A stretch of 36,300 bases of DNA from Candidatus Heimdallarchaeota archaeon (GTDB lineage: Archaea; Asgardarchaeota; Heimdallarchaeia; Heimdallarchaeales; Heimdallarchaeaceae). This document shows, piece by piece, positions 749 through 14,637 of this stretch. The translations under genes were made by a program, and so were the position numbers. A model generated the notes under the pieces. The model worked only from the letters and a program-made list of their open reading frames with translations, was not told the origin of the DNA and made no database searches. Every line of letters starts with the position of its first letter. Positions within the stretch are counted from its first letter, which is position 1. Where the stretch lies: the NCBI GenBank assembly GCA_016839945.1, contig JAEOTE010000009.1, positions 1-36,300 of the forward strand, given 5' to 3'.

Positions 749-2695
749 TTATAGGAATATGCTTTCTATATATTCTGATAATTGAGAGCGATCTGTTAGA
801 GTTAATTCTTGTTTTTTTGTTATTTTTTCCATTAACTCCTGCCAAAATCCTGAAAAAGCATTCAAATCAGATATAAGTTGTTTGAATTTCTTTATAGCTA
901 TGTATGATTTACCGATAAAAACGTAACCAAATAATAGATTTTCATACACATACAAAGCAATTGTATAATCTTTATATCTCAAACGCTCAATTGTTATTCT
1001 TTCTTGTTCTTTTTTTGCTTGTGATTCGCTAATGATCTCCATTAATCCTTCTATAAAGTCATCATCTAAAGTAGTAGTACTAAAACGATCTGAAAAAATT
1101 ATATGGTTAGATTTATCCATTATAAGAAAAAGACTTGGTATTTCATCTTCTTGTTCGATAGTTGTATATGTAATTTTGTTTTTTACCAGTTGATTTAGCA
1201 TATCTTCAAAATGTGTTAGTTCCATACGTTCTGCAATAGTAGGAAGCTTCATTGAAAATTGATCCCATTGATCAAGTTTATCGAGAAGAAGGTCATGTTC
1301 GTTAGAGATTAAGTTAGCAAGCCTTGTAATGTCTTTTTCATCTGCTATCTGTTGAGCTTTTTCTAGCAGTATCTTTGCTTCTTCAATTTTCAAATTCATT
1401 TGTGCTAAATGAGATTTTAGCAGATAGGTTTCAGAGATCAAAATATGTGATCTCTGAGTTTCAGCCAGTTCATCAAGTTGGTCCAAAGATTGTTTTATAG
1501 GTTTTAGCAATTCTATATCATTTGTTAATTTCAATTTTTGGAGATAAAAATCACATAAATGGAAAAACGCCATTCTGTTCATTTCTACAAAAATTAATTT
1601 CTCTTGAACGACCTCTTTCAACATTGTTTCTATTACATCTTGATTATCATCAAAAGAACATGCTTTGAGGTAGATAGATTGAGCAAGCTTGTAGATATGC
1701 ATTAAAGGATAGTCAATTACATGCTCAGTTTGCATATTTCTAATTGTAGCAACGATTTCCATCTTTTCTAAGTTTTGTTTTATTTCTTCGAATTTTCCTT
1801 GTTCTAGATAAATTAGATTCATTCTAAAAAGCATTACAATATAATGTACATTACCATATAACTTACCTCTTTTAATTTGCTCTAAAGATTTATTGTAGTA
1901 TTGTAATGAAGTTACCAATTCTCCCTTTTGCCAGTAATAGAATCCTAAATCACTGTATATAGCTCCCAAGCTATAAGAAGAATCTATCTCTTCAGCAAAT
2001 GATAATGCTTTCAAAGAGTATTGAAGATACTTTTCTAATTCGCCAATTTGAAGAAAACCTGCTGCTGTATTAACCGTACAAGCAATAATTCCTATAGTAT
2101 TATTAAGTTCTGTAAAAATCATTAAACTTTGATTATAATATTTCTCACTATTAAAAAAATCTCCTTTTAAAGCGAAAGTAAAAGCTTTGATAAATAAACG
2201 CCAAGCTTTTCGATACTTATCCCCTAATTCTTCATATATCTCCAGTGATTGATTCAGTTTATCCATATATTCTTCAGAATGAGTACTAATTCCGTTTGTA
2301 AGAATTTCTGCATATCTCTTGAGGTAATCAGGTGAATTTTTATCCTTGTATTTATTTAGTACTTTTATTGCATAATCTCTTTTTTCTTTAGCTAATTCGC
2401 TAAAACCCAAGTAGCCTAATGATCGTCCATAAAGTATTGCTGAATCAAAAATTAAGAGGGGATTATCAATTTCTATACTTTCTTCATAAGCTTGTTTGGC
2501 ATTAACTAATGCTTCAGAAAACGGTTGTATATCTAAAAATATCCTTGCTTTAAGGATTTTTAACCTTATACACTCTTCTGTTGTTAATTCGTCTCTTTTC
2601 TGAACTGCGTCTATTCTTTTTAGAGCTTCTTTATATTCAGATCCTACAATTAGTTCTTCTACTTCCTTTAGTTCAGTACTAAATATGCTACCCAT
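749..2695 (-). CDS. TPR-repeat protein with C-terminal longin-like alpha/beta domain (paralog 1)
   Basis: Repeated TPR/MalT-like helical units (e.g. 'LGAIYSDLGFYYWQKGELVTSLQYYNKSL'). The last ~130 aa have a b-b-a-b-b-b-a-a pattern. Clear paralog of 6004..7926. Confidence 0.8.
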   Translation of the reverse strand: MGSIFSTELKEVEELIVGSEYKEALKRIDAVQKRDELTTEECIRLKILKARIFLDIQPFSEALVNAKQAYEESIEIDNPLLIFDSAILYGRSLGYLGFSELAKEKRDYAIKVLNKYKDKNSPDYLKRYAEILTNGISTHSEEYMDKLNQSLEIYEELGDKYRKAWRLFIKAFTFALKGDFFNSEKYYNQSLMIFTELNNTIGIIACTVNTAAGFLQIGELEKYLQYSLKALSFAEEIDSSYSLGAIYSDLGFYYWQKGELVTSLQYYNKSLEQIKRGKLYGNVHYIVMLFRMNLIYLEQGKFEEIKQNLEKMEIVATIRNMQTEHVIDYPLMHIYKLAQSIYLKACSFDDNQDVIETMLKEVVQEKLIFVEMNRMAFFHLCDFYLQKLKLTNDIELLKPIKQSLDQLDELAETQRSHILISETYLLKSHLAQMNLKIEEAKILLEKAQQIADEKDITRLANLISNEHDLLLDKLDQWDQFSMKLPTIAERMELTHFEDMLNQLVKNKITYTTIEQEDEIPSLFLIMDKSNHIIFSDRFSTTTLDDDFIEGLMEIISESQAKKEQERITIERLRYKDYTIALYVYENLLFGYVFIGKSYIAIKKFKQLISDLNAFSGFWQELMEKITKKQELTLTDRSQLSEYIESIFL

Positions 2696-6003: not shown

Positions 6004-7926
6004 CTATAAGAAAACGCTTTCCATATATTCGGTTAATTTAATTCGCTCCTCTAAAGATAGTTCTATATTATCCTTGATTTTTTCAAAATAAGTGTGCCAC
6101 TCACTTGTAAATGAACGAAACTCCTCAATCAATTGCTTTAATTTCTTTAAAGCGTAATAAGATTTTCCAATAAACGTGTAAATTAACAATAAATCTTTTT
6201 GAGAGTTTATAGCAATCGTATAATTAAGATACTTCAAACGTTTTATTGTTGCATCATTTAGAGCTTCAGAGGTTTTATATTCATTAATAGATGTCAATAT
6301 TCCTTGTAATAGTTCATCTTCCAAAGAAATATCACTAAATGCTTCAGAAAAAACAACTGACCCTTTTTGATTTAGTATAAGGAAGAAATTAGGTGATTCT
6401 TTTTCGTCAACAAGATCAATAAACGTAACATTATTTCTTATCATTTTACTTAACAGTTCTTCTACATGAGTGAATTCAAACCTTTCTTCTAAACTTGGTA
6501 GATAAGTTGACATTCCTTCCCATTTACTTAGTTGGTCAAGAAGAATATCATACTCATTAGAAATAATTTTAGCGAGATTAACAATACCTTTGTCCTCAGC
6601 AATGGATTGTGCTCTATCTAGTAATGATTGTCCTTCTTTCATGTTAAATTCAATGAGTTCTAGTTTTGATTGTAAGAGAAGTGATTGTGCAAGTAAAATA
6701 TAGGACCTTTGCTGCTCTGCCATTTTCTTTAAGAATTTTACACTATTCTTTAATTTTTCATAAACTTCTATATCATTTGTTTTTTGTATCACTTTCAGAT
6801 ATGAATCACATAGATGAAAGATTACTAATCCATTTACTTCCAAGTGAACAGTTTCATCATGTGCTACTTCTTCTAGAAGAGTAATAGCTTCACTCCAACT
6901 AGTTTCTTCTTGTTGTGTTTTAAGAAGAATTGCTTTAGCTAAGTAATAGATTTTTTTGAAAATTGGTTTATCCTTTATTAGAAACAACAATTCGATTTGT
7001 TCTAAATTCTGGAATGCTTCTTCATATCTTTCCATTTCAATTAGAACTAAATTCATTCTAAGGAGTGACCATGGATAGTGCCGTGTACCAACTATTTTTG
7101 CTTCTTTAAAGGATTTTAAGCTTTTTTGGTAGTAGTTTAATGCGGTTTTTAAATCTCGTCTCAACCAATATAGATACCCTAAATCCATGTATGCACTTGC
7201 AAAAGAATAGTGATCACCTGTTTCTTCACAAATTGATATACTCTTAAGAAAATAATCAAGTGCCATATCTAATTCTCCCATGTGTAAATTTATGGCTGCT
7301 AAAATTGATATGGAAAAATTAATTTCATTGTAGTATTCAAGCCTATCAGCAAGCTCTAGAGTTTTCTGTGCATAAATTAGAGCTTTTTTAAGTTCTCCTG
7401 ACCAAACATATGAAGTACTGAGATTACGATAAGAATTAGCAAGTTGAAAATCAAGACCTAATCTTTTCGAGATATCTATACTTTCTTCAATATTTGCCGA
7501 AGAACTAGAAAAAGAGTCTCCTTGCATTAGAAGTAATCTAGCCTTTCTCTTCAGATATTCATCAGAATTTTTATCATCAAAAGAATCTAGTATTTGACTT
7601 GCTAATTTTACTCTTTCTTTTCTTAAATCATATTCGCCAGCACGATAATAAGCAATGGGTAAAACTATAACAGAGTCAAACATCAATTGTTTGTTGTTGA
7701 GTTTCTTACTTTCCTCAAAAGCTTCTTCTCCATATTTTATTACCTCTGAATATGGGAAAGTTTCAAAATGGATTTGAGCTCTGTATATTTTGCATCTTAT
7801 TTTTTCTTCCTTAGTAGCGACTTCTTTACCAATAATGCCATCAATTCTTTCTTGTGCTATATTATATTTTCCTCTAACTATGAGCTGTTCAATTTCTTCC
7901 AATTCTTTAGCAAAGATTCCATTCAT
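6004..7926 (-). CDS. TPR-repeat protein with C-terminal longin-like domain (paralog 2)
   Basis: Collinear with 749..2695: both share 'IF..EL.E.E.LIV', 'ISNE.D.LLD.L..W', 'LP...ER.E.TH.E..L' and 'Y.FIGKSY.A.KK.KQLI', and end in 'EY.ES.FL'. Confidence 0.8.
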   Translation of the reverse strand: MNGIFAKELEEIEQLIVRGKYNIAQERIDGIIGKEVATKEEKIRCKIYRAQIHFETFPYSEVIKYGEEAFEESKKLNNKQLMFDSVIVLPIAYYRAGEYDLRKERVKLASQILDSFDDKNSDEYLKRKARLLLMQGDSFSSSSANIEESIDISKRLGLDFQLANSYRNLSTSYVWSGELKKALIYAQKTLELADRLEYYNEINFSISILAAINLHMGELDMALDYFLKSISICEETGDHYSFASAYMDLGYLYWLRRDLKTALNYYQKSLKSFKEAKIVGTRHYPWSLLRMNLVLIEMERYEEAFQNLEQIELLFLIKDKPIFKKIYYLAKAILLKTQQEETSWSEAITLLEEVAHDETVHLEVNGLVIFHLCDSYLKVIQKTNDIEVYEKLKNSVKFLKKMAEQQRSYILLAQSLLLQSKLELIEFNMKEGQSLLDRAQSIAEDKGIVNLAKIISNEYDILLDQLSKWEGMSTYLPSLEERFEFTHVEELLSKMIRNNVTFIDLVDEKESPNFFLILNQKGSVVFSEAFSDISLEDELLQGILTSINEYKTSEALNDATIKRLKYLNYTIAINSQKDLLLIYTFIGKSYYALKKLKQLIEEFRSFTSEWHTYFEKIKDNIELSLEERIKLTEYMESVFL

Positions 7927-8100
7927 TTTACATTATCTACTGCAAGTTTTCAAAATAATTATGCTTTTAGTTTTTAATAGTTTTTGCTAAGTAATCAGAG
8001 CAATCTGATAAGAAATTAATTTAATCTAAAATATTTTTACGAGCAGAAAGTTTTTTAATATGTATCAGATTCTAGTACACGTAACAATAAAGTGAACGTA

Positions 8101-8514
8101 ATGCCTGACATAACAGATGCAGAAAAATCACAAATAAGGGAGATAGCTAAACAATATGCTACTGCATTATGGAAAATTCCTTTTAATGAAGGATTAGTTC
8201 TTTATGTAAAGTCAAATAATGAATTACACATACATCCTGCAAGATGGAAATACTGTATGAAATGTGGAGAAATAGATAAGAAAGAAAAAATGGATCCACA
8301 CAAGTGTTTAATGAATGTTGAAGAATTTCCAATTTTGATCCAAACTTCATGGTATAAGCTTAAAGAATTCTTCTTAACAGAGAATTACAAAGATTTTATG
8401 AAAGAAGCAGGTATTGATAAGATACCATCTATCTCACTAATCACTGAAATCAATGAAGAAGTAAAGGAAGTAAAAGATACTAAGGTACCTGCTTCAGAGA
8501 AAGAAAGAATATAA
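8101..8514 (+). CDS. Uncharacterised small Cys/His zinc-binding protein, paralog A
   Basis: ATG at 8101 (MPDIT) aligns with paralog B. Motifs ARWKYCMKCG, HKC and TSWYKLKEFFL. TATA-like TTTTAATA near 8053; T-rich terminator after the stop. Confidence 0.75.
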   Translation: MPDITDAEKSQIREIAKQYATALWKIPFNEGLVLYVKSNNELHIHPARWKYCMKCGEIDKKEKMDPHKCLMNVEEFPILIQTSWYKLKEFFLTENYKDFMKEAGIDKIPSISLITEINEEVKEVKDTKVPASEKERI

Positions 8515-8559
8515 TAACAAATTTTTTCTTGTTTTTATTGAAAACTAACCTTTTTTTAC

Positions 8560-8628
8560 GAAAAGTTTTTATATGTGTCGTGTTTTGTCACATATGTGTG
8601 TAACAAAAATCGATGCATATGTGTGTCG
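8560..8628 (+). promoter_or_regulatory. BRE/TATA promoter followed by three ATATGTGT repeats
   Basis: GAAAAGTTTTTATAT at 8560-8574; ATATGTGT at 8571, 8592 and 8617; CACATATGTG palindrome at 8589-8598. Confidence 0.5.
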
Positions 8629-8661
8629 AAAACTGTTTCATATCTCTTTGGAGGTTAAAAA

Positions 8662-9258
8662 ATGAACAAGAAAAAAACTGTAATCTTGATGAGTGCATTT
8701 TGCGTTCTACTCTTTGGATTATTACCTGTTGCTGCTGCTAATGACTATGTAAGTTATGGTGAAGTTGAATCTAGCTTTAATACATACCTAAGTGGTAAGG
8801 ACAGAAAAACAACAACTGGAAGAATTGTACCATGGTACGATGGTATGACTTACCACTATGAGGATGCTCATGGTATTTATGGTGCAATCTACGTGACTGA
8901 ATCTGTACTTCAAATGGCTCAATTTTTGATGTGGTATTATTTTGGTGTAATTTTCACCTACGATAATATCAACGAAGGATGTAAGGAGTATCTCTCTTGG
9001 TTTACCACTACTGCCACTCTAAATGGAGAACCACTGGAAATGACATATACACCAATTAAGAGGAGTCAATGTGTTGATTCCTATGGTGAGTCAATATTGT
9101 GGTGGTTTAACGTGGGAACACTATTCAAGCCAGGGGAACTAGAACCTGGTCAATATCACTTGGTCACATATTATTGGATGAACCCTCTTGGTATGTTCCC
9201 TGAGCCAATTCCCAATTTCATTACTCCACCTGATGACATTTGGTTTACCATAGTATAA
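8662..9258 (+). CDS. Secreted hypothetical protein
   Basis: GGAGG SD at 8650; signal peptide MNKKKTVILMSAFCVLLFGLLPVAAA; aromatic-rich mature region. Confidence 0.7.
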   Translation: MNKKKTVILMSAFCVLLFGLLPVAAANDYVSYGEVESSFNTYLSGKDRKTTTGRIVPWYDGMTYHYEDAHGIYGAIYVTESVLQMAQFLMWYYFGVIFTYDNINEGCKEYLSWFTTTATLNGEPLEMTYTPIKRSQCVDSYGESILWWFNVGTLFKPGELEPGQYHLVTYYWMNPLGMFPEPIPNFITPPDDIWFTIV

Positions 9259-9344
9259 TAGAATGCAAAACCACCTTTTCATTTTTTTTCTACCAATAAC
9301 AAACAGAAATTCAATCAAATAAAAAATTAGGAGGTTTAAAAAAC

Positions 9345-9623
9345 ATGCCAAAATTTCTAGCAATACACCCCTTCCCAGAGCCAGCTCCTGTAGAAGCTGC
9401 TACTCCTATAGGTCAAGGAGTTAAAAACTTCTGTAATGCTGACGCTTACTGGGTTAAAAGTTGGGCAATTCTTAATGAAGAAGGTCATATCAAAAAAATT
9501 CTTTGTCAATGGGATGCTAAAGATGTTGATTCGATAAAATCCATCTTAGAAAAGATCCCTCAATTGCCTACTGAAGGTATTTATCCTTTAGGAATTTTCC
9601 AAGCTGAAGATTTTCGAAAGTAA
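9345..9623 (+). CDS. DUF4242-like (SCO4226-like) small alpha/beta protein
   Basis: GGAGG SD; the 'MPKFLAIH...WVKSW...KILCQWDAKDVDSI...P...I' pattern is typical of this family. Confidence 0.65.
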   Translation: MPKFLAIHPFPEPAPVEAATPIGQGVKNFCNADAYWVKSWAILNEEGHIKKILCQWDAKDVDSIKSILEKIPQLPTEGIYPLGIFQAEDFRK

Positions 9624-9686
9624 TGATGATTACAAAGGGAATCTTCACCTTTTCACCTTTTTTATTACCACTAAGAGTTGCTTGCC

Positions 9687-10028
9687 ATGCCTGACATAAC
9701 AAATGAGAAAAAAAATCAGATTAGAATAATAGCTGAAAAATATAGCATAATTCTATCGAAGATTCCCTTTGAGGAGGGAGTTAGTATTTATTCAAAAACT
9801 TATCAAGCACTCCATATTCAATCAGCTCGATGGAGGTTTTGTCTTCTTTGTGGAAAAATAAAATACCCGGAAGGCTTCAGAAAGAACAATCACAAATGCG
9901 CTTATTTTTCCTCTAATGATTTTCCAATTCTTGTTAAAACTTCTTGGATAAAATTGGAGAATTTCTTTCTTTCTCGGAAATTTCTTGACATTCTTAAAGA
10001 AGGGGGTATTATTATTGAAGAAGGGTAA
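9687..10028 (+). CDS. Uncharacterised small Cys/His zinc-binding protein, paralog B
   Basis: ATG at 9687 (MPDIT). Motifs ARWRFCLLCG, HKC and TSWIKLENFFL. Confidence 0.75.
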   Translation: MPDITNEKKNQIRIIAEKYSIILSKIPFEEGVSIYSKTYQALHIQSARWRFCLLCGKIKYPEGFRKNNHKCAYFSSNDFPILVKTSWIKLENFFLSRKFLDILKEGGIIIEEG

Positions 10029-10105
10029 AAAACTATTAATTAACAAATGTAAGAATTCTTTAATTCTTTAATTGATAGTTTTGAAAAAAAAAGAAAAGGA
10101 AGAGA

Positions 10106-11179
10106 TTATTTCTTCTTTGTTACTATTCTAATTACTAAGACCATTGCTAAAACAGATACAGAACTTATTGTAATGATTTCTAAAGCTCCTAAACCAGCAT
10201 TATCTTCTATTACAGGTCCTTCAAGAGATCCTATGGAGGGATCATAAACAACTTCATCATCAAAATGTTCAAAGCTGAGATAAGTTTGGACTGACCCATC
10301 ACCTAGTGTAGAATATGATGCATTAACAGTCTTGTACTCATATTGATTAGAGATGTTGTATTTAGCTTTATTTGCATAAGCAAAGAATGCTTTATATTGT
10401 TCAGTTCCAATTATAAATTGTTCTTTAACTTGAGCATTATTCTGAACTTTTACTTCATCTCCTGTTGTATTTTGATTTTGATTAACGGTTAATCCATTGG
10501 TATCATTAAGTCTATAGGAATTGGTTGTGGGTATAATATCAAAACGTAAAGCTAAGTTAGTGTCATTTCTTTGCCAAGGCCAATTGTTCATGACAATGTC
10601 GAATTTCATTTCAGCTCCACCGATGATTTCATAACCATCAATTGATTGATCATTAAGATACATATGAACAACTATTTTCATTTCAAAATCAGTATAATGA
10701 GGAACAGTAATACTATCAGATACATATTCGAAATGAACAGCTGATACTTCTTTCTGTTCTTCTGTTATATCAATATATTCTACATCAAAACCAGTGAAAT
10801 TCCATCTAACTGATGAAAGAGAGAGTACATTTGAATAAATTGGCATTGGTGGAGCCATATCTTTCCATATACCTGTTTCATCATATTGGAATACTCCATC
10901 TTCATTATAATCCATATATTCTGTTAACGACTTAAACATTATATTGAATGAAAAAGCACTTTCAAAGGCAAAAGCACTTCCAGTCAAGAATTGGAATTTT
11001 GGAACACTTCCTCCTGCTTTAGCAATAAATTCCAAATCATAATACTTGAAAGTTACTTGGTTGCTATTTTCTTCATAGAAGAAATCTTGGTCATCTGCAT
11101 TTACTTGTGTTAAAACAAGTAGCATCAAGAACATTGATCCTATTGTTAGGTTTAATATTCGTTTGTTCATTTTTATCAA
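10106..11179 (-). CDS. Secreted beta-rich surface protein with C-terminal TM anchor
   Basis: Signal peptide (likely start MNKRIL); N-glycosylation sequons (NFT, NDT, NIS, NAS); 'YDPSIG' precedes a TM helix and KKK tail. Confidence 0.75.
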   Translation of the reverse strand: MIKMNKRILNLTIGSMFLMLLVLTQVNADDQDFFYEENSNQVTFKYYDLEFIAKAGGSVPKFQFLTGSAFAFESAFSFNIMFKSLTEYMDYNEDGVFQYDETGIWKDMAPPMPIYSNVLSLSSVRWNFTGFDVEYIDITEEQKEVSAVHFEYVSDSITVPHYTDFEMKIVVHMYLNDQSIDGYEIIGGAEMKFDIVMNNWPWQRNDTNLALRFDIIPTTNSYRLNDTNGLTVNQNQNTTGDEVKVQNNAQVKEQFIIGTEQYKAFFAYANKAKYNISNQYEYKTVNASYSTLGDGSVQTYLSFEHFDDEVVYDPSIGSLEGPVIEDNAGLGALEIITISSVSVLAMVLVIRIVTKKK

Positions 11180-11309
11180 GTTCTTTTCCTCATCCCTTTT
11201 TGAATACGTTATTATTTATCAAACCAAAGCAACTTTATTTAAAAAATTAAAGAGCTTCCAAAGTAGATGAAAAAAAGCTAAAAATGAGAAAGAAAAATCA
11301 AAAAAAAAA

Positions 11310-12578
11310 TCAACCATAAATGGAAGTATCTGCGATAGTTTCTGGGTAATCCTCATCATCAAGATCCATAGGCTTAGCATTTGATTTGATTCTTTTAGGA
11401 TACCTTTTATGTTTTGACCTATCCTCAGTCCTTTCTTTCTGACTCAAATAGTATCGTCGTATATCTTTCTTCATAAAAAGCTCTATCCTTCGTATCATAT
11501 TCATTTCTTCATCTTCTACCAAAGAAATAGCTTTTCCTGCTCTTTCCATTCTAGAAGTTCTTCCTATTCTATGAACATAATCTTCAGGATTACCTACTGG
11601 GAGATCATAATTGAAAATATGAGAAACATGAGGAATATCAAGTCCTCTAGCTGCCACATCTGTTGCTATCAAACAATCAATTCTCTTTTTTCTAAAATTC
11701 TTCATAGTTATTTCTCTTTGTTTCTGAGACATATCTCCTTGTAACATACCAATTCTTAATTGAATTCTTTTATCATTCACCAATCTTTTCTGGAGATTAG
11801 CTCCCCATCTTTTTGTATTAACAAAAACTATACAAGATTGAGGTTTTTCTCTTTGGAGAAGTTGAATAAAATTATTGTATTTGTATCGGGAATTCTTAAC
11901 TTCATAGTAATATTGTTTACAAGAACCGACTGTTAGATCATCATGACTAACGTCTATTTCTACTAAATCTTCATCCCAGCTATAATCATGAGCTATTTTT
12001 TTTACTTCTTCAATCATAGTAGCTGAAAAAAGTAACAATCTTGGATAAACATTTTTCATTGCTTCAAAAAGGATATAGTCTACATCAGGTATAAAACCCA
12101 TATCTAGCATTCTATCTGCTTCATCTAAAACAACAAATCTCACTTCTTTGAATGAGATAGCTTTACGTTTATACAAATCAATAAGTCTTCCTGGAGTTGC
12201 TATTACTATTTGACTTCCTTTACGGATATTCTCTATTTGTCTATTAATTGAAACTCCACCATAAACTTCTACAGATCTTAACTGTCTGTATTTTGTTATA
12301 TCTCGAAAAACAGTGTAAACTTGTTTACAAAGTTCTCTTGTAGGTACCAAGACAACAGCTTGGACCTTGCTTAAAGAAGGATTAAGTTTTTCTACTATTG
12401 GAATAGCAAAAGCTAATGTTTTACCAGTTCCAGTTTTGGCTTGAGCCATAATGTGAGTATGATCTGCTTCAAAAATCTTAGGAATTGCTTTCTCTTGTAT
12501 ATCAGTTGGTGTATGTATTCGCATATCGTTTAAAGCACGTTTAATTTCGTTTTTTATGTTGTAATCTTCAAATTTCAT
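11310..12578 (-). CDS. DEAD-box ATP-dependent RNA helicase (CshA/DeaD-like)
   Basis: Q motif PTDIQ, AKTGTGKT, PTREL, TPGR, DEAD, SAT, ARGLD and HRIGRTSR. Start placed at ATG 12578 (MKFEDY). Confidence 0.95.
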   Translation of the reverse strand: MKFEDYNIKNEIKRALNDMRIHTPTDIQEKAIPKIFEADHTHIMAQAKTGTGKTLAFAIPIVEKLNPSLSKVQAVVLVPTRELCKQVYTVFRDITKYRQLRSVEVYGGVSINRQIENIRKGSQIVIATPGRLIDLYKRKAISFKEVRFVVLDEADRMLDMGFIPDVDYILFEAMKNVYPRLLLFSATMIEEVKKIAHDYSWDEDLVEIDVSHDDLTVGSCKQYYYEVKNSRYKYNNFIQLLQREKPQSCIVFVNTKRWGANLQKRLVNDKRIQLRIGMLQGDMSQKQREITMKNFRKKRIDCLIATDVAARGLDIPHVSHIFNYDLPVGNPEDYVHRIGRTSRMERAGKAISLVEDEEMNMIRRIELFMKKDIRRYYLSQKERTEDRSKHKRYPKRIKSNAKPMDLDDEDYPETIADTSIYG

Positions 12579-12802
12579 TTGTATCAGTTGTATTTTGTTT
12601 GTATCAAAAACTTGTACTATTGTAACTAAAGTAATTATTAGCAATCAATATCATAGTTTTTAAAGTGTTGAAAAAAATAGAATTATTCGTTTTACTTCTT
12701 TCTAATCTTCCTCAACTCTGAATTAATTTATCTATGAAGTCTTTAAAAGGCTTTGTTATTACAACAGAAAACAAAAAAAAAAAAATAATGAATAAAAACG
12801 GA

Positions 12803-12904
12803 TTATGCAAAAACCCTAATGAAGTATAAAGCTGGAAGTACTGAAATTATGCTTAGGAAGGCTGCATAGGCAAGTACTCCTATTCCTATTCGTAAGAATC
12901 TCAT
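12803..12904 (-). CDS. 33-aa single-pass membrane microprotein (not in ORF track)
   Basis: ATG 12904 to TAA 12803 reads MRFLRIGIGVLAYAAFLSIISVLPALYFIRVFA. It lies 19 nt downstream of the 77-aa ORF and is followed by an oligo-T tract on the minus strand. Confidence 0.6.
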   Translation of the reverse strand: MRFLRIGIGVLAYAAFLSIISVLPALYFIRVFA

Positions 12905-12923
12905 TAGATACACAGATCTAACT

Positions 12924-13157
12924 TCAACGTTTCTCCACAATCTGCGTAGATATGACATATTCATCCTCTATCACCTCCTTTGATTTCTTGGATTTGAACT
13001 TAGACTTGATTTTTGCAATTTTATCATAACGAATTTGAATATAGTCAGGGTTTGATTGATTATTCTTCTTGACCAATTCCTCCTTCAAAAATCGGAAACA
13101 TTCATCCAACATTTTTGAGGAGTTTCGTTGTCTCATCAAGTTGTTCAAATTTTTCAT
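12924..13157 (-). CDS. Small basic hypothetical protein (77 aa)
   Basis: Lys-rich. A minus-strand TTTATATA box at 13181-13188 lies ~24 nt before the ATG, which fits a leaderless transcript. Confidence 0.55.
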   Translation of the reverse strand: MKNLNNLMRQRNSSKMLDECFRFLKEELVKKNNQSNPDYIQIRYDKIAKIKSKFKSKKSKEVIEDEYVISTQIVEKR

Positions 13158-13354
13158 ATGTGTTCATATTGATGACATAGTATATAAACAAATCCATGAT
13201 TACATATATGTCCCCTATTTGATTACATAATAGGCTTATATCAAATGCCCTTAATTTCATTTATTATCAAAAATATTAAAACAAAAGTAATTTTAAATGA
13301 CGATAGAAAACAAACAAAAAAAGAGGTAAATATTGCCTACATATGTAGTTAATT

Positions 13355-13442
13355 TGATTACAAGAACAAACATTAGGTCATTTTTGCCAAAAGGGTCACA
13401 TATAAATAGTATGTCTCATATATGATTACAAGAACAAACATT
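13355..13442 (+). repeat. Perfect 20-bp direct repeat TGATTACAAGAACAAACATT, two copies flanking a TATA box
   Basis: Copies at 13355-13374 and 13423-13442; TATAAATA at 13401-13408 between them. Confidence 0.85.
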
Positions 13443-13449
13443 TGTAGAG

Positions 13450-13920
13450 GTGAATTTTATACCCGATGTAAAGGACTCAGAAAAAACACAGATCCGCTCT
13501 CGTGCAAGACGGTTTGCATTGGACTTACTTGATGCATCTTTAGGGGAAGGTTTGGAGCTATATAATGAAGTAATTGAAGATGCCGTCTTAGACAAAGAAA
13601 AAGGAGAGTACAAAGGGGGATTGTATAAAAGATCTGCACGTTGGAAAATCTGTTTGAAATGTGGAACCATAGCAGAAAAGGACGGATTAAAAGAAGAAAC
13701 ACACAAATGTGCATCAGGTTTTGGTAAATTACCCGTAATCATTCCTACAAGCTGGGTTGTACTGAAAGATTTTTTCCTCACTAATAGATATGTTCAAGCT
13801 CTACAAAAATTAGGAGTTGAGCCCATCCCCGCACGTAAAATTCCTATTAGCGTACCTGTTGAGGAAGAAGCTGAAATAGTTGTTGAAGAACCTGCTGAAG
13901 TACCAGACACAGTTAATTGA
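13450..13920 (+). CDS. Uncharacterised small Cys/His zinc-binding protein, paralog C (acidic/Pro-rich tail)
   Basis: IPDV..EK.QIR; ARWKICLKCG, HKC and TSWVVLKDFFL. Start is GTG 13450 or possibly ATA 13459. Confidence 0.75.
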   Translation: MNFIPDVKDSEKTQIRSRARRFALDLLDASLGEGLELYNEVIEDAVLDKEKGEYKGGLYKRSARWKICLKCGTIAEKDGLKEETHKCASGFGKLPVIIPTSWVVLKDFFLTNRYVQALQKLGVEPIPARKIPISVPVEEEAEIVVEEPAEVPDTVN

Positions 13921-13926
13921 GTCTTG

Positions 13927-14637
13927 TTATAGGTTTATTTCCTCAAACAATAATTCCTTATTATTCTCAATAAACTTCCAACCAAATCCAGGTAGATTAG
14001 AAACAGGTCCGTCTATACCTTTTGGAGTTCCTGTTTTTGTGTAAAGAATGTTAGTATTTCTTATAGCATTAAGAACTTCATATGGGGTCTTGAATTCTTC
14101 AATAAGTATTTTAGCTTTCTTAGGTCCTGCATCTAATAGTCCTTCAACAATGAAGACTCTTCTCTCTTCAATAGACATACCTTTAGGAGCCCTTCTAGAA
14201 AGAACAGGTTTTATGTCTTCAATTTGTTCTCTGTAAGCTATTCTCTCAATGACAATTACAGTGTCATCTATATTTCTTGTCGGAATAACAGCAATCCCCA
14301 ACTTATATGAGACATAAGCAAGAGCTCCATAAATAGAAGAAAGATTCATGCTTGTATTCTCTAAAGCGAGGTAATCAAATCCTTCTAAAATAAGTACTGG
14401 ATTTGGATAAGTATCAATTAAAAGTAGAAGTTGTTCAAACAACCTACCATCAATAATGGAAGAAATAAAATCTGAACCAGTTTTTCTTTCAATAGCAACG
14501 TCTTCTGAGATGATAATATCTGCTACTTCAAGGTTTTTAGTCTCATAACTGATTTTATCAGACTTCTTATCAAGACCTTTAGTTAATTTTCTTTCCCTGT
14601 GATCAATTATTATATGTAATTTAGTATTGGAGTTCAT
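13927..14637 (-). CDS. xpf: Stand-alone XPF/ERCC4-domain structure-specific endonuclease with HhH motifs
   Basis: 'IIIDHRE', 'ADIII' and 'IERKTGSDFISSIIDGRLFEQ' (ERKxxxD); HhH-like 'GLLDAGPKKA' and 'LPGFG'; no helicase domain. Confidence 0.9.
   Translation of the reverse strand: MNSNTKLHIIIDHRERKLTKGLDKKSDKISYETKNLEVADIIISEDVAIERKTGSDFISSIIDGRLFEQLLLLIDTYPNPVLILEGFDYLALENTSMNLSSIYGALAYVSYKLGIAVIPTRNIDDTVIVIERIAYREQIEDIKPVLSRRAPKGMSIEERRVFIVEGLLDAGPKKAKILIEEFKTPYEVLNAIRNTNILYTKTGTPKGIDGPVSNLPGFGWKFIENNKELLFEEINL

Follow-up and report, generated by a model that had tools for sequence, protein, structure and literature searches.

Two kinds of archaeal zinc-finger protein are among the closest known counterparts of the family reported here. 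In Halobacterium salinarum, the small zinc-finger protein Brz, whose gene lies directly upstream of bop, regulates bop transcription (PMC2253796), and in Haloferax volcanii one-domain zinc-finger micro-proteins of the C(P)XCG type are present in many copies per genome (PMC6562870, PMC11241148, PMC10716476). The family analyzed in this work was detected in a 36,300-nt stretch of the Heimdallarchaeal contig JAEOTE010000009.1, taken as a whole and here termed the window (coordinates given without a locus prefix refer to it), which harbors three of its genes:

Paralog A, 8101..8514, + strand: 137 aa; orthogroup C1; helical scaffold, CxxC...HxC insert and 32-aa charged tail.
Paralog B, 9687..10028, + strand: 113 aa; orthogroup A1; short form, with a tail of 5 aa.
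Paralog C, 13450..13920, + strand: 156 aa counted from GTG; orthogroup D; 33-aa acidic/Pro-rich tail.

The analysis reveals an orphan, previously unnamed family of small (~110-160 aa) cytoplasmic proteins, predicted to bind zinc, which is limited to two genera of one Heimdallarchaeal family and has multiplied by local duplication within one conserved chromosomal region. Several of its clades present promoter elements of their own, and these clade-specific elements are a new result of the present analysis. We tentatively favor, with somewhat less than even confidence, the interpretation that the family comprises sequence-specific, dimeric and autoregulating transcription factors that would also control the adjacent gene, both DNA and zinc binding being predicted.

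Many copies of the family lie with respect to a surface-protein gene much as brz does with respect to bop. Nonetheless, no sequence similarity to Brz was detected; Brz is much smaller, single-copy and haloarchaeal, whereas the proteins described here combine a 100-residue helical scaffold, a putative C2HC site (CxxCG...HxC) and a disordered tail, are encoded by up to nine clustered paralogs and have only a proposed regulatory role. The likeness to the Haloferax proteins resides in their being small, archaeal and multi-copy and in the CxxCG knuckle, of which a single invariant instance is found here (C52-x2-C55-G56). [quoted passage not shown] Hence, identity with the Haloferax type was rejected on length, on the single CxxCG and on the HxC second pair. 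In broad kind, these are predicted to be small archaeal zinc-finger proteins, but no solved relative of their modeled scaffold was detected.

Family members, distribution and conservation

An earlier note on this DNA, made from the sequence and a list of its open reading frames (ORFs), had described the ORFs at 8101, 9687 and 13450 as + strand paralogs that align end to end. The alignment bears this out: the coordinates are right, and every conserved block listed there falls within the 33 columns that are invariant in the three paralogs, which include PD, K..QIR..A, EG...Y, ARW..C..CG.I, HKC, P....TSW..L..FFL and G104. Over the whole cores, the other two paralogs are 50% and 43% identical to paralog A, and all three match the hidden Markov model (HMM) of the family with E = 1e-47 to 1e-70, well beyond chance expectation. 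The start codon of paralog C is the GTG at 13450, the conserved N-terminus (IPDV) beginning only at 13459, and this protein contains a 13-residue insert placed between helix 2 and the zinc hairpin. A profile built from the three paralogs recovers them in their own genome (E = 1e-56 to 1e-70) and identified a fourth paralog, assigned to group E, on another contig (G000:C33:7539-7955(-)). The tails differ as the note had reported, being charged in A, reduced to five residues in B and acidic/Pro-rich in C.

Outside this genome, a word-indexed search of 5.8 billion proteins yielded 87 clusters at 90% identity, all of them unnamed or annotated as 'hypothetical protein', whose source labels are bins of Heimdallarchaeota, Heimdallarchaeaceae or Asgard, with one Thorarchaeota label. 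When 1.84 billion representative sequences were searched exhaustively with an HMMER profile, 23 clusters were returned, all of which are the family itself, and no distant relative. Among whole genomes, which are metagenome bins 63-99% complete, the family is present in 24 of 24 from the genus of the window and in both genomes of a second genus in the same taxonomic family, and absent from the four that represent three further genera of it (two of these being single-contig and 92-93% complete) and from 53 genomes elsewhere in the class. It is found, accordingly, in 26 of 30 genomes of one Heimdallarchaeal family. Each genome carries between one and nine copies, grouped on one contig, as illustrated by the nine located within 83 kb of G013:C41; the second genus retains the neighborhood and has a single copy in one 95%-complete genome. 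The suggestion of a lineage-expanded family is thus supported by the very HMM search of Asgard and other genomes that the note had proposed, which detected only the family itself in two genera. Ratios of nonsynonymous to synonymous substitution (dN/dS) between ortholog pairs range from 0.08 to 0.42 in all orthogroups, and all of them are therefore under purifying selection.

A divergent and more basic paralog (L048:3613-4014 in G001:C16; L049:1020-1340 in G042:C336) preserves CLRCGEI and the H-x-C pair and lacks RW and TSW. It is conserved in both genera (84-94% identity), is sited outside the main cluster and, used as a bridge query, retrieved only its own two clusters and no wider kin.

For the analysis of gene context, 245 kb of sequence from the window, the contig of the fourth copy and six relatives were excised, and their ORFs were called and clustered, giving 14 loci. 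A maximum-likelihood tree resolves approximately seven well-supported orthogroups, each of them at a conserved chromosomal position, and the duplications are therefore older than the species of the genus. Paralog A belongs in this tree to group C, paralog B to group A (short forms) and paralog C to group D.

Across 63 members, residues Y35, R48, C52, C55, G56, I58, H67, T82, W84, F91 and L92 are invariant, and P2, D3, K9, I12, G31, A47, W49, L53, C69, P77, S83, L87 and F90 are conserved in at least 90%. The predicted ligands follow the arrangement C-x2-C-G, 11 to ~35 residues, H-x-C, with C52, C55 and H67 invariant and C69 conserved at the level just given, so that the Cys/His set singled out in the note is indeed conserved over the 63 members. 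The remaining blocks that it listed hold for the three paralogs and only partly for the family: among the 38 members of the context set, some sequences of groups D, E and F have L or I in place of W49 and some of group D have N in place of S83, while the 'final G' is frequent yet variable. Most other invariant residues are hydrophobic or occupy the termini of helices and strands (DxxD preceding helix 1, TS preceding helix 3), which suggests a structural role. Hence, the binding surface that the note had proposed for R, W and TSW finds no support, since most invariants look structural and W49 is not conserved family-wide.

Conversely, some columns are fixed within orthogroups and differ between them. 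These map to one face of helix 1 (10, 11, 14, 18, 21, 22 and 25), to helix 2 (33, 36 and 39) and to the zinc loop (59-61, 64 and 70-75), and the helix-1 positions interleaved with the variable face stay conserved (K9, I12, R13, A16 and L23). Variable columns on a conserved scaffold are the pattern that would be expected, from sequence, of a diversifying recognition surface.

Two departures from the common ligand arrangement were observed. In an A2-group copy of G014 (L045:1487-1849), the H-x-C pair has been lost (...HKDQNYPQVSCHK...) while the reading frame is still open, and this copy may be a decaying or zinc-free member. In group B (L038:10818-11300, L041:2446-2925, L042:10136-10612, L045:1877-2353 and L036:4915-5556), a charged insertion stretches the CxxC-HxC spacing from 11-13 to 30-32 residues. 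Group-B genes are always located beside a short group-A2 member, in tandem or convergent orientation, suggesting that the two neighbors form a heteromeric pair.

Predicted structure and searches for relatives

The AlphaFold2 model obtained with the 63-sequence alignment has a mean predicted local distance difference test (pLDDT) score of 79, with ten-residue blocks at 75-95 over residues 1-110 and the tail below 50. Along the chain it comprises two helices (6-25 and 28-42), two strands (49-52 and 58-60), two short helices (61-64 and 68-72), a third strand (79-82) and two last helices (84-92 and 95-102). These outline a hairpin of helices, an insert of three strands that bears CxxC...HxC, a further pair of helices and, finally, a disordered tail. 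In the model, C52 is the last residue of strand 49-52 and C55 is in the turn; H67 and C69 lie on either side of the start of helix 68-72, and the blocks over residues 41-70 have pLDDT values of 92-95. This placement fits the usual geometry of a zinc knuckle and a helix N-terminus, pointing to one predicted C2HC zinc site. The C2-HC finger set in a helical domain that the note had envisaged therefore stands as regards conserved ligands modeled with confidence within a helical scaffold, zinc binding itself being a prediction. The cores are mildly basic (median isoelectric point 8.9, net charge 0 to +8) and the tails mostly acidic or Pro/Ser/Thr-rich and disordered; no signal peptide or transmembrane (TM) segment was detected in the family proteins.

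The note had not recognized the family, and the searches agree with it. Scans of the paralogs, the fourth copy and the divergent copy with Pfam, NCBIfam, PADLOC and PHROGs returned nothing significant, and in particular no confident full-length Pfam match. The best sub-threshold Pfam rows are SBP (14.3 bits, cut-off 27) and zf-tcix (13 bits, cut-off 31.2), NCBIfam matches have E >= 0.04, PHROGs matches E > 0.1, and the sole PADLOC row (typeIV_Cas10, 14.2 bits, E 0.0031) corresponds to the acidic tail of one member. A profile search of PDB sequences was likewise without significant result (best E 0.46). The structural comparisons suggested in the note were run with the model, whose core is confident, and revealed no solved relative: the best Foldseek match to the PDB has E = 1, the best of BFVD E 0.46, and VIA-align against 48,161 chains gave a best Z of 4.7 (64 residues aligned, root-mean-square deviation 3.9) for a designed helical protein, ahead of generic helix bundles, with Z 2.1 in a second-look structural comparison; none of these matches rises above noise. 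The isolated zinc insert, as a low-confidence model with which searches are unreliable, has weak matches that are mostly generic zinc modules (VIA best Z 3.7).

Treble-clef and zinc-ribbon modules (zf-tcix PF14952, SBP PF03110, and the knuckles of HypA, MCM and rubredoxin-like proteins) resemble the family in presenting a CxxC knuckle on a beta-hairpin with a second ligand pair near a helix N-terminus. All of these matches are, however, sub-threshold (13-14 bits where 27-31 are required, Foldseek E > 3, VIA Z < 4), and the H-x-C spacing and helical scaffold of the family have no counterpart among them. The ESM Atlas recognition value is 1680, compared with the 2300 reached by 91 of 100 proteins of known families, and its leads DUF3684 and DUF8348 were discarded, their scores (0.89-0.90, 120-140 shared features) being in the chance range and a Pfam scan at E <= 10 listing neither. 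A tautomerase-like catalysis by the conserved N-terminal Pro was also dropped, given the unrelated fold and the resemblance of P2/D3 to a helix cap.

Clade-specific promoter elements

The upstream regions of family genes contain TATA-like boxes and Shine-Dalgarno-like AGTGAT or GGAGG, together with elements that are specific to particular clades. In the window, the latter comprise:

Paralog A promoter, 8051..8080, + strand: TATA-like TTTTTTAATATGT (8051-8063), then CTAGTACAC (8072-8080), 21-29 nt before the ATG.
Three ATATGTGT motifs, 8571..8624, + strand: at 8571, 8592 and 8617, in the leader of the secreted-protein gene; the middle copy lies inside the palindrome CACATATGTG.
Distal palindrome GGTAAATATTGCC, 13325..13337, no strand: one mismatch to GGCAA-N3-TTGCC; ~128 nt upstream of paralog C.
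Proximal degenerate copy GGTCATTTTTGCC, 13376..13388, no strand: two mismatches; immediately 5' of the TATA-like ATATAAATA and ~77 nt ahead of paralog C.

The palindrome GGCAA-N3-TTGCC is associated with groups D, E and F. Allowing up to one mismatch, 11 sites occur in the 245 kb, 10 of them intergenic, and all 10 intergenic sites flank D, E or F genes at fixed offsets. Seven sites are upstream of such genes at two positions (~-60 to -78, immediately 5' of the TATA box, and ~-114 to -129), and the other four lie 78-100 nt past the stop codon of F-group genes, ahead of a micro-ORF operon. No site with up to two mismatches was found within 250 nt upstream of group A, B or C genes. In five whole genomes (16.7 Mb), the exact palindrome is present four times (G023:C148 at 40142, 40724 and 41545; G001:C7 at 86569), each within ~150 nt of a family gene, and a reversed control pattern has three matches, in the other three of the five genomes. 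There is no genome-wide enrichment in the genome of the window (5 GGYAA-N3-TTRCC sites against ~8 expected); the specificity of the palindrome is positional. Half-sites are retained and spacers differ, while synonymous sites between several of the genomes are near saturation (dS ~0.9-2), and the conserved half-sites are therefore a footprint rather than leftover similarity. GGTAAATATTGCC and GGTCATTTTTGCC are both situated in the divergent region between paralog C and a micro-ORF pair.

Group C presents different elements. All six exact CTAGTACAC sites in the 245 kb are located at -22 to -27 of group-C starts, in sense orientation and between the TATA box and the start codon, and the element also precedes one group-C-like copy in the second genus (g10). 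Palindromic or fixed-position motifs at the promoters of family genes are found in both forms, exact GGCAA-N3-TTGCC being specific to these genes in the 16.7 Mb and exact CTAGTACAC in the 245 kb. The composite TATATGT-N10-CTAGTACAC, with its fixed spacer, has no matches because the spacer varies. The second element, ATATGTGT, is the TATA-proximal core of group-C promoters and is shared with the leader of the downstream secreted-protein gene, which an oligo-T tract after paralog A precedes. As an 8-mer it is under-represented in the genome (106 occurrences against ~237 expected), and its occurrences cluster in these loci and ahead of genes of group C, of c19 and of the SCO4226-like type.

Two further repeats were observed in the window. 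A perfect 20-bp direct repeat starting with TGATTACAAGAAC (13355-13374 and 13423-13442) brackets the TATA-like box of paralog C, and TGATTACA has five copies, all on the + strand upstream of paralogs B and C (including 13197, 13220 and 9627), with two more upstream of the orthologous gene in G001; its enrichment in the window is not significant (5 against 2.8 expected).

Gene neighborhood

As stated in the note, unrelated genes separate the paralogs, namely those for the secreted 198-aa protein, the SCO4226-like protein, the anchored surface protein, the DEAD-box helicase and the micro-ORFs. The genes surrounding the three paralogs are:

TPR protein (cluster c1), 6004..7926, - strand: divergent from paralog A; recurrent partner.
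Secreted 198-aa protein (cluster c19), 8662..9258, + strand: downstream of paralog A; same order in G013 and G014.
SCO4226-like 92-aa protein (cluster c10), 9345..9623, + strand: directly upstream of paralog B; recurrent neighbor.
Surface protein, 357 aa (cluster c9), 10106..11179, - strand: signal peptide and C-terminal anchor; convergent with paralog B.
DEAD-box helicase (cluster c3), 11310..12644, - strand: in relatives, recurrently next to subgroup A2 and the B genes in tandem with it.
Micro-ORF pair, 12803..13157, - strand: 77-aa basic protein and 53-aa TM microprotein; divergently oriented to paralog C, with the palindrome-bearing region in between.
ERCC4/XPF-type nuclease, 13927-14637, - strand: adjoins paralog C.

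The examination of neighborhood conservation called for in the note shows that the region is syntenic across 24 species and the second genus, is rich in multi-copy families and has recurrent TPR and surface-protein genes. Over the 14 loci, there are 16 copies of TPR genes, 12 of genes for right-handed beta-helix (NosD-like) proteins, 11 of DEAD-box helicases and six of MFS transporters, interspersed with single-copy genes (among them FAD oxidase, glutaredoxin and racemase genes). Family genes usually head a unit, the same-strand downstream gene coding for a beta-helix protein in seven cases, a c19 protein in three, and a TPR protein, a DEAD-box helicase or an SCO4226-like protein in two cases each. 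The remaining family genes are divergent from TPR, MFS or DEAD-box genes or paired with each other in tandem or convergent order. Signal-like N-termini are present in the beta-helix, c9 and c19 proteins, most of which also have a C-terminal anchor.

Proximity to a DEAD-box helicase and an XPF nuclease had been taken in the note as a hint at nucleic-acid binding or regulation. The XPF part of this hint is not supported, as no ERCC4 counterpart exists in the 13 related loci examined and the position of the nuclease gene is specific to this genome. The DEAD-box part holds to a limited extent: such genes do recur in the region, but it is in other genomes that they are direct neighbors of A2 and its tandem partner B, and their association with paralog C is loose. 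The surface-protein genes, the TPR genes and the clade-specific promoter motifs are stronger context signals than either.

Several features of the neighboring genes were recorded in passing. A second TPR gene is present in the window (749-2695, - strand), and TPR proteins (640-816 aa), often encoded divergently from or directly downstream of a family gene, make up the biggest partner family of the region. The DEAD-box paralogs (~420-455 aa) number up to two per locus, and the occurrence of several in one region is unusual for a compact archaeal genome. A conserved micro-ORF operon beside F-group genes fills stretches of 1.2-1.46 kb without a called ORF (L038:8412-9658, L041:2926-4241, L042:8484-9773, L045:2829-4031 and L036:5557-7018). 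It codes for a basic coiled-coil protein of ~50 aa followed by one or two TM microproteins of ~48 aa, with a GGCAA-N3-TTGCC palindrome ahead. The 53-aa TM ORF of the window resembles the second peptide of this operon (34% over 50 aa), and the 77-aa ORF matches the coiled-coil protein marginally.

Regulatory and alternative interpretations

We favor the transcription-factor interpretation because it brings together a small cytoplasmic protein with a predicted zinc site, a gene position that heads units or diverges from the neighbor, clade-specific palindromic motifs at fixed offsets, both in the promoters of the family and in those of neighboring genes, and a surface that diversifies between paralogs. 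Under this interpretation, each paralog would bind an operator at its own promoter, leading to autoregulation, and another at the promoter of the adjacent transcription unit, be it a surface-protein or TPR gene, the micro-ORF operon or a DEAD-box helicase gene. Once duplicated, regulator and operator would have diverged together. Zinc binding, DNA binding, dimerization and the reading of the motifs by the family proteins, rather than by another factor, are all predicted here. Brz provides an archaeal precedent by analogy (PMC2253796).

A number of results weigh against this interpretation. No recognizable helix-turn-helix, ribbon-helix-helix or winged-helix DNA-binding fold was found, nor did the structural searches yield a match of any kind (best Z 4.7). 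The zinc insert folded alone reaches a pLDDT of only 64 (low confidence), the core of paralog A is neutral and the charge of the cores is in general just mildly positive. No shared promoter motif could be established for groups A and B, and the CTAGTACAC 9-mer taken alone has no genome-wide specificity (in five genomes it has 44 matches, of which six are at family genes, compared with 71 for the control). The motif statistics draw on related genomes and orthologous promoters are moreover non-independent, so that the sites amount to ~five independent positions for the palindrome and three for CTAGTACAC. The main weakness is that the link between protein and motif is drawn from position: a factor other than the family proteins could read motifs that were copied along with the genes.

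This last possibility is assumed by an alternative that we consider rather unlikely, in which the family proteins would be zinc-stabilized protein-binding adaptors or regulatory subunits for the products of neighboring genes (TPR proteins, DEAD-box helicases or the cytoplasmic side of surface-protein export), the helix-1 face and the tail setting partner specificity and some other factor reading the motifs. The repeated pairing of paralogous family genes with paralogous partners (TPR, beta-helix and DEAD-box genes, at the counts given above for the 14 loci) is what adaptors would be expected to show, and so are variable surface positions on a conserved scaffold and disordered tails, which are typical of interaction motifs. 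TPR domains, in turn, are peptide-binding modules. The partners appear, however, too varied for one binding mode, including as they do a cytoplasmic TPR protein, a secreted beta-helix protein, an MFS transporter, a helicase and micro-ORFs. The intergenic gaps of 50-180 nt, with TATA-like boxes of their own and terminator-like T tracts, speak against tight co-translation, and a search for longer, fused forms of the family proteins found none, which is weak evidence in the same direction. Adaptors would also leave the clade-specific palindromes at the promoters of the family itself unexplained.

The position of CTAGTACAC between the TATA box and the start codon, where it may be transcribed, would fit a second alternative, namely that the proteins would be RNA-binding or post-transcriptional regulators acting with the neighboring DEAD-box helicases, for instance on 5' leaders containing CTAGTACAC or ATATGTGT. 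Several DEAD-box paralogs are indeed present in the region, as direct neighbors of subgroup A2, and zinc knuckles frequently bind RNA. Nevertheless, the best-supported motif, GGCAA-N3-TTGCC, is a palindrome of DNA type that lies upstream of the TATA box and would stay untranscribed, most family copies have no adjoining helicase, and no similarity to known RNA-binding zinc knuckles was found, so that we regard this alternative as quite improbable. As to the possibility that the genes are cargo of a mobile element, virus or defense island and have spread horizontally, a multi-copy orphan family of small proteins, with one to nine copies per genome in a paralog-rich region, might suggest it. Yet synteny extends over 24 species and into a second genus, housekeeping-type genes (FAD oxidase, glutaredoxin, racemase, phosphate transport) are interspersed in the region, the neighbors scanned include no integrase or transposase, PADLOC, PHROGs and BFVD gave no significant match, and the orthogroups follow the species. 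This reading was consequently rejected on synteny and gene content, and we attach hardly any credence to it.

Evolutionary and functional implications

Beyond the transcription-factor interpretation itself, a broader and rather doubtful scenario can be put forward, in which a DNA-binding fold without a solved relative, consisting of a zinc knuckle in a four-helix scaffold, would have arisen in one Heimdallarchaeal family and radiated by local duplication into at least seven orthogroups. Its reading surface and operators would have diverged together (GGCAA-N3-TTGCC for D, E and F; CTAGTACAC and ATATGTGT for C), giving rise to a private regulatory network for variable surface proteins, TPR proteins and membrane micro-proteins.

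The wider importance of the family is limited by its narrow taxonomic range and by the lack of a cultured host. Its members are at present annotated merely as 'hypothetical protein', and a family model together with the motifs would allow annotators to name them and to predict their targets. Since the fold searches detected no solved relative of the model, a structure determined by experiment would probably reveal a new zinc-finger scaffold. The Heimdallarchaeia, in which the family is set beside TPR proteins and variable surface proteins, are the archaea nearest to eukaryotes. If its members are indeed regulators, they would constitute a young transcription-factor family that has gone from apparently one copy, as in the 95%-complete genome of the sister genus, to nine clustered paralogs with operators of their own, and would offer a compact natural case of regulator and operator diverging together.

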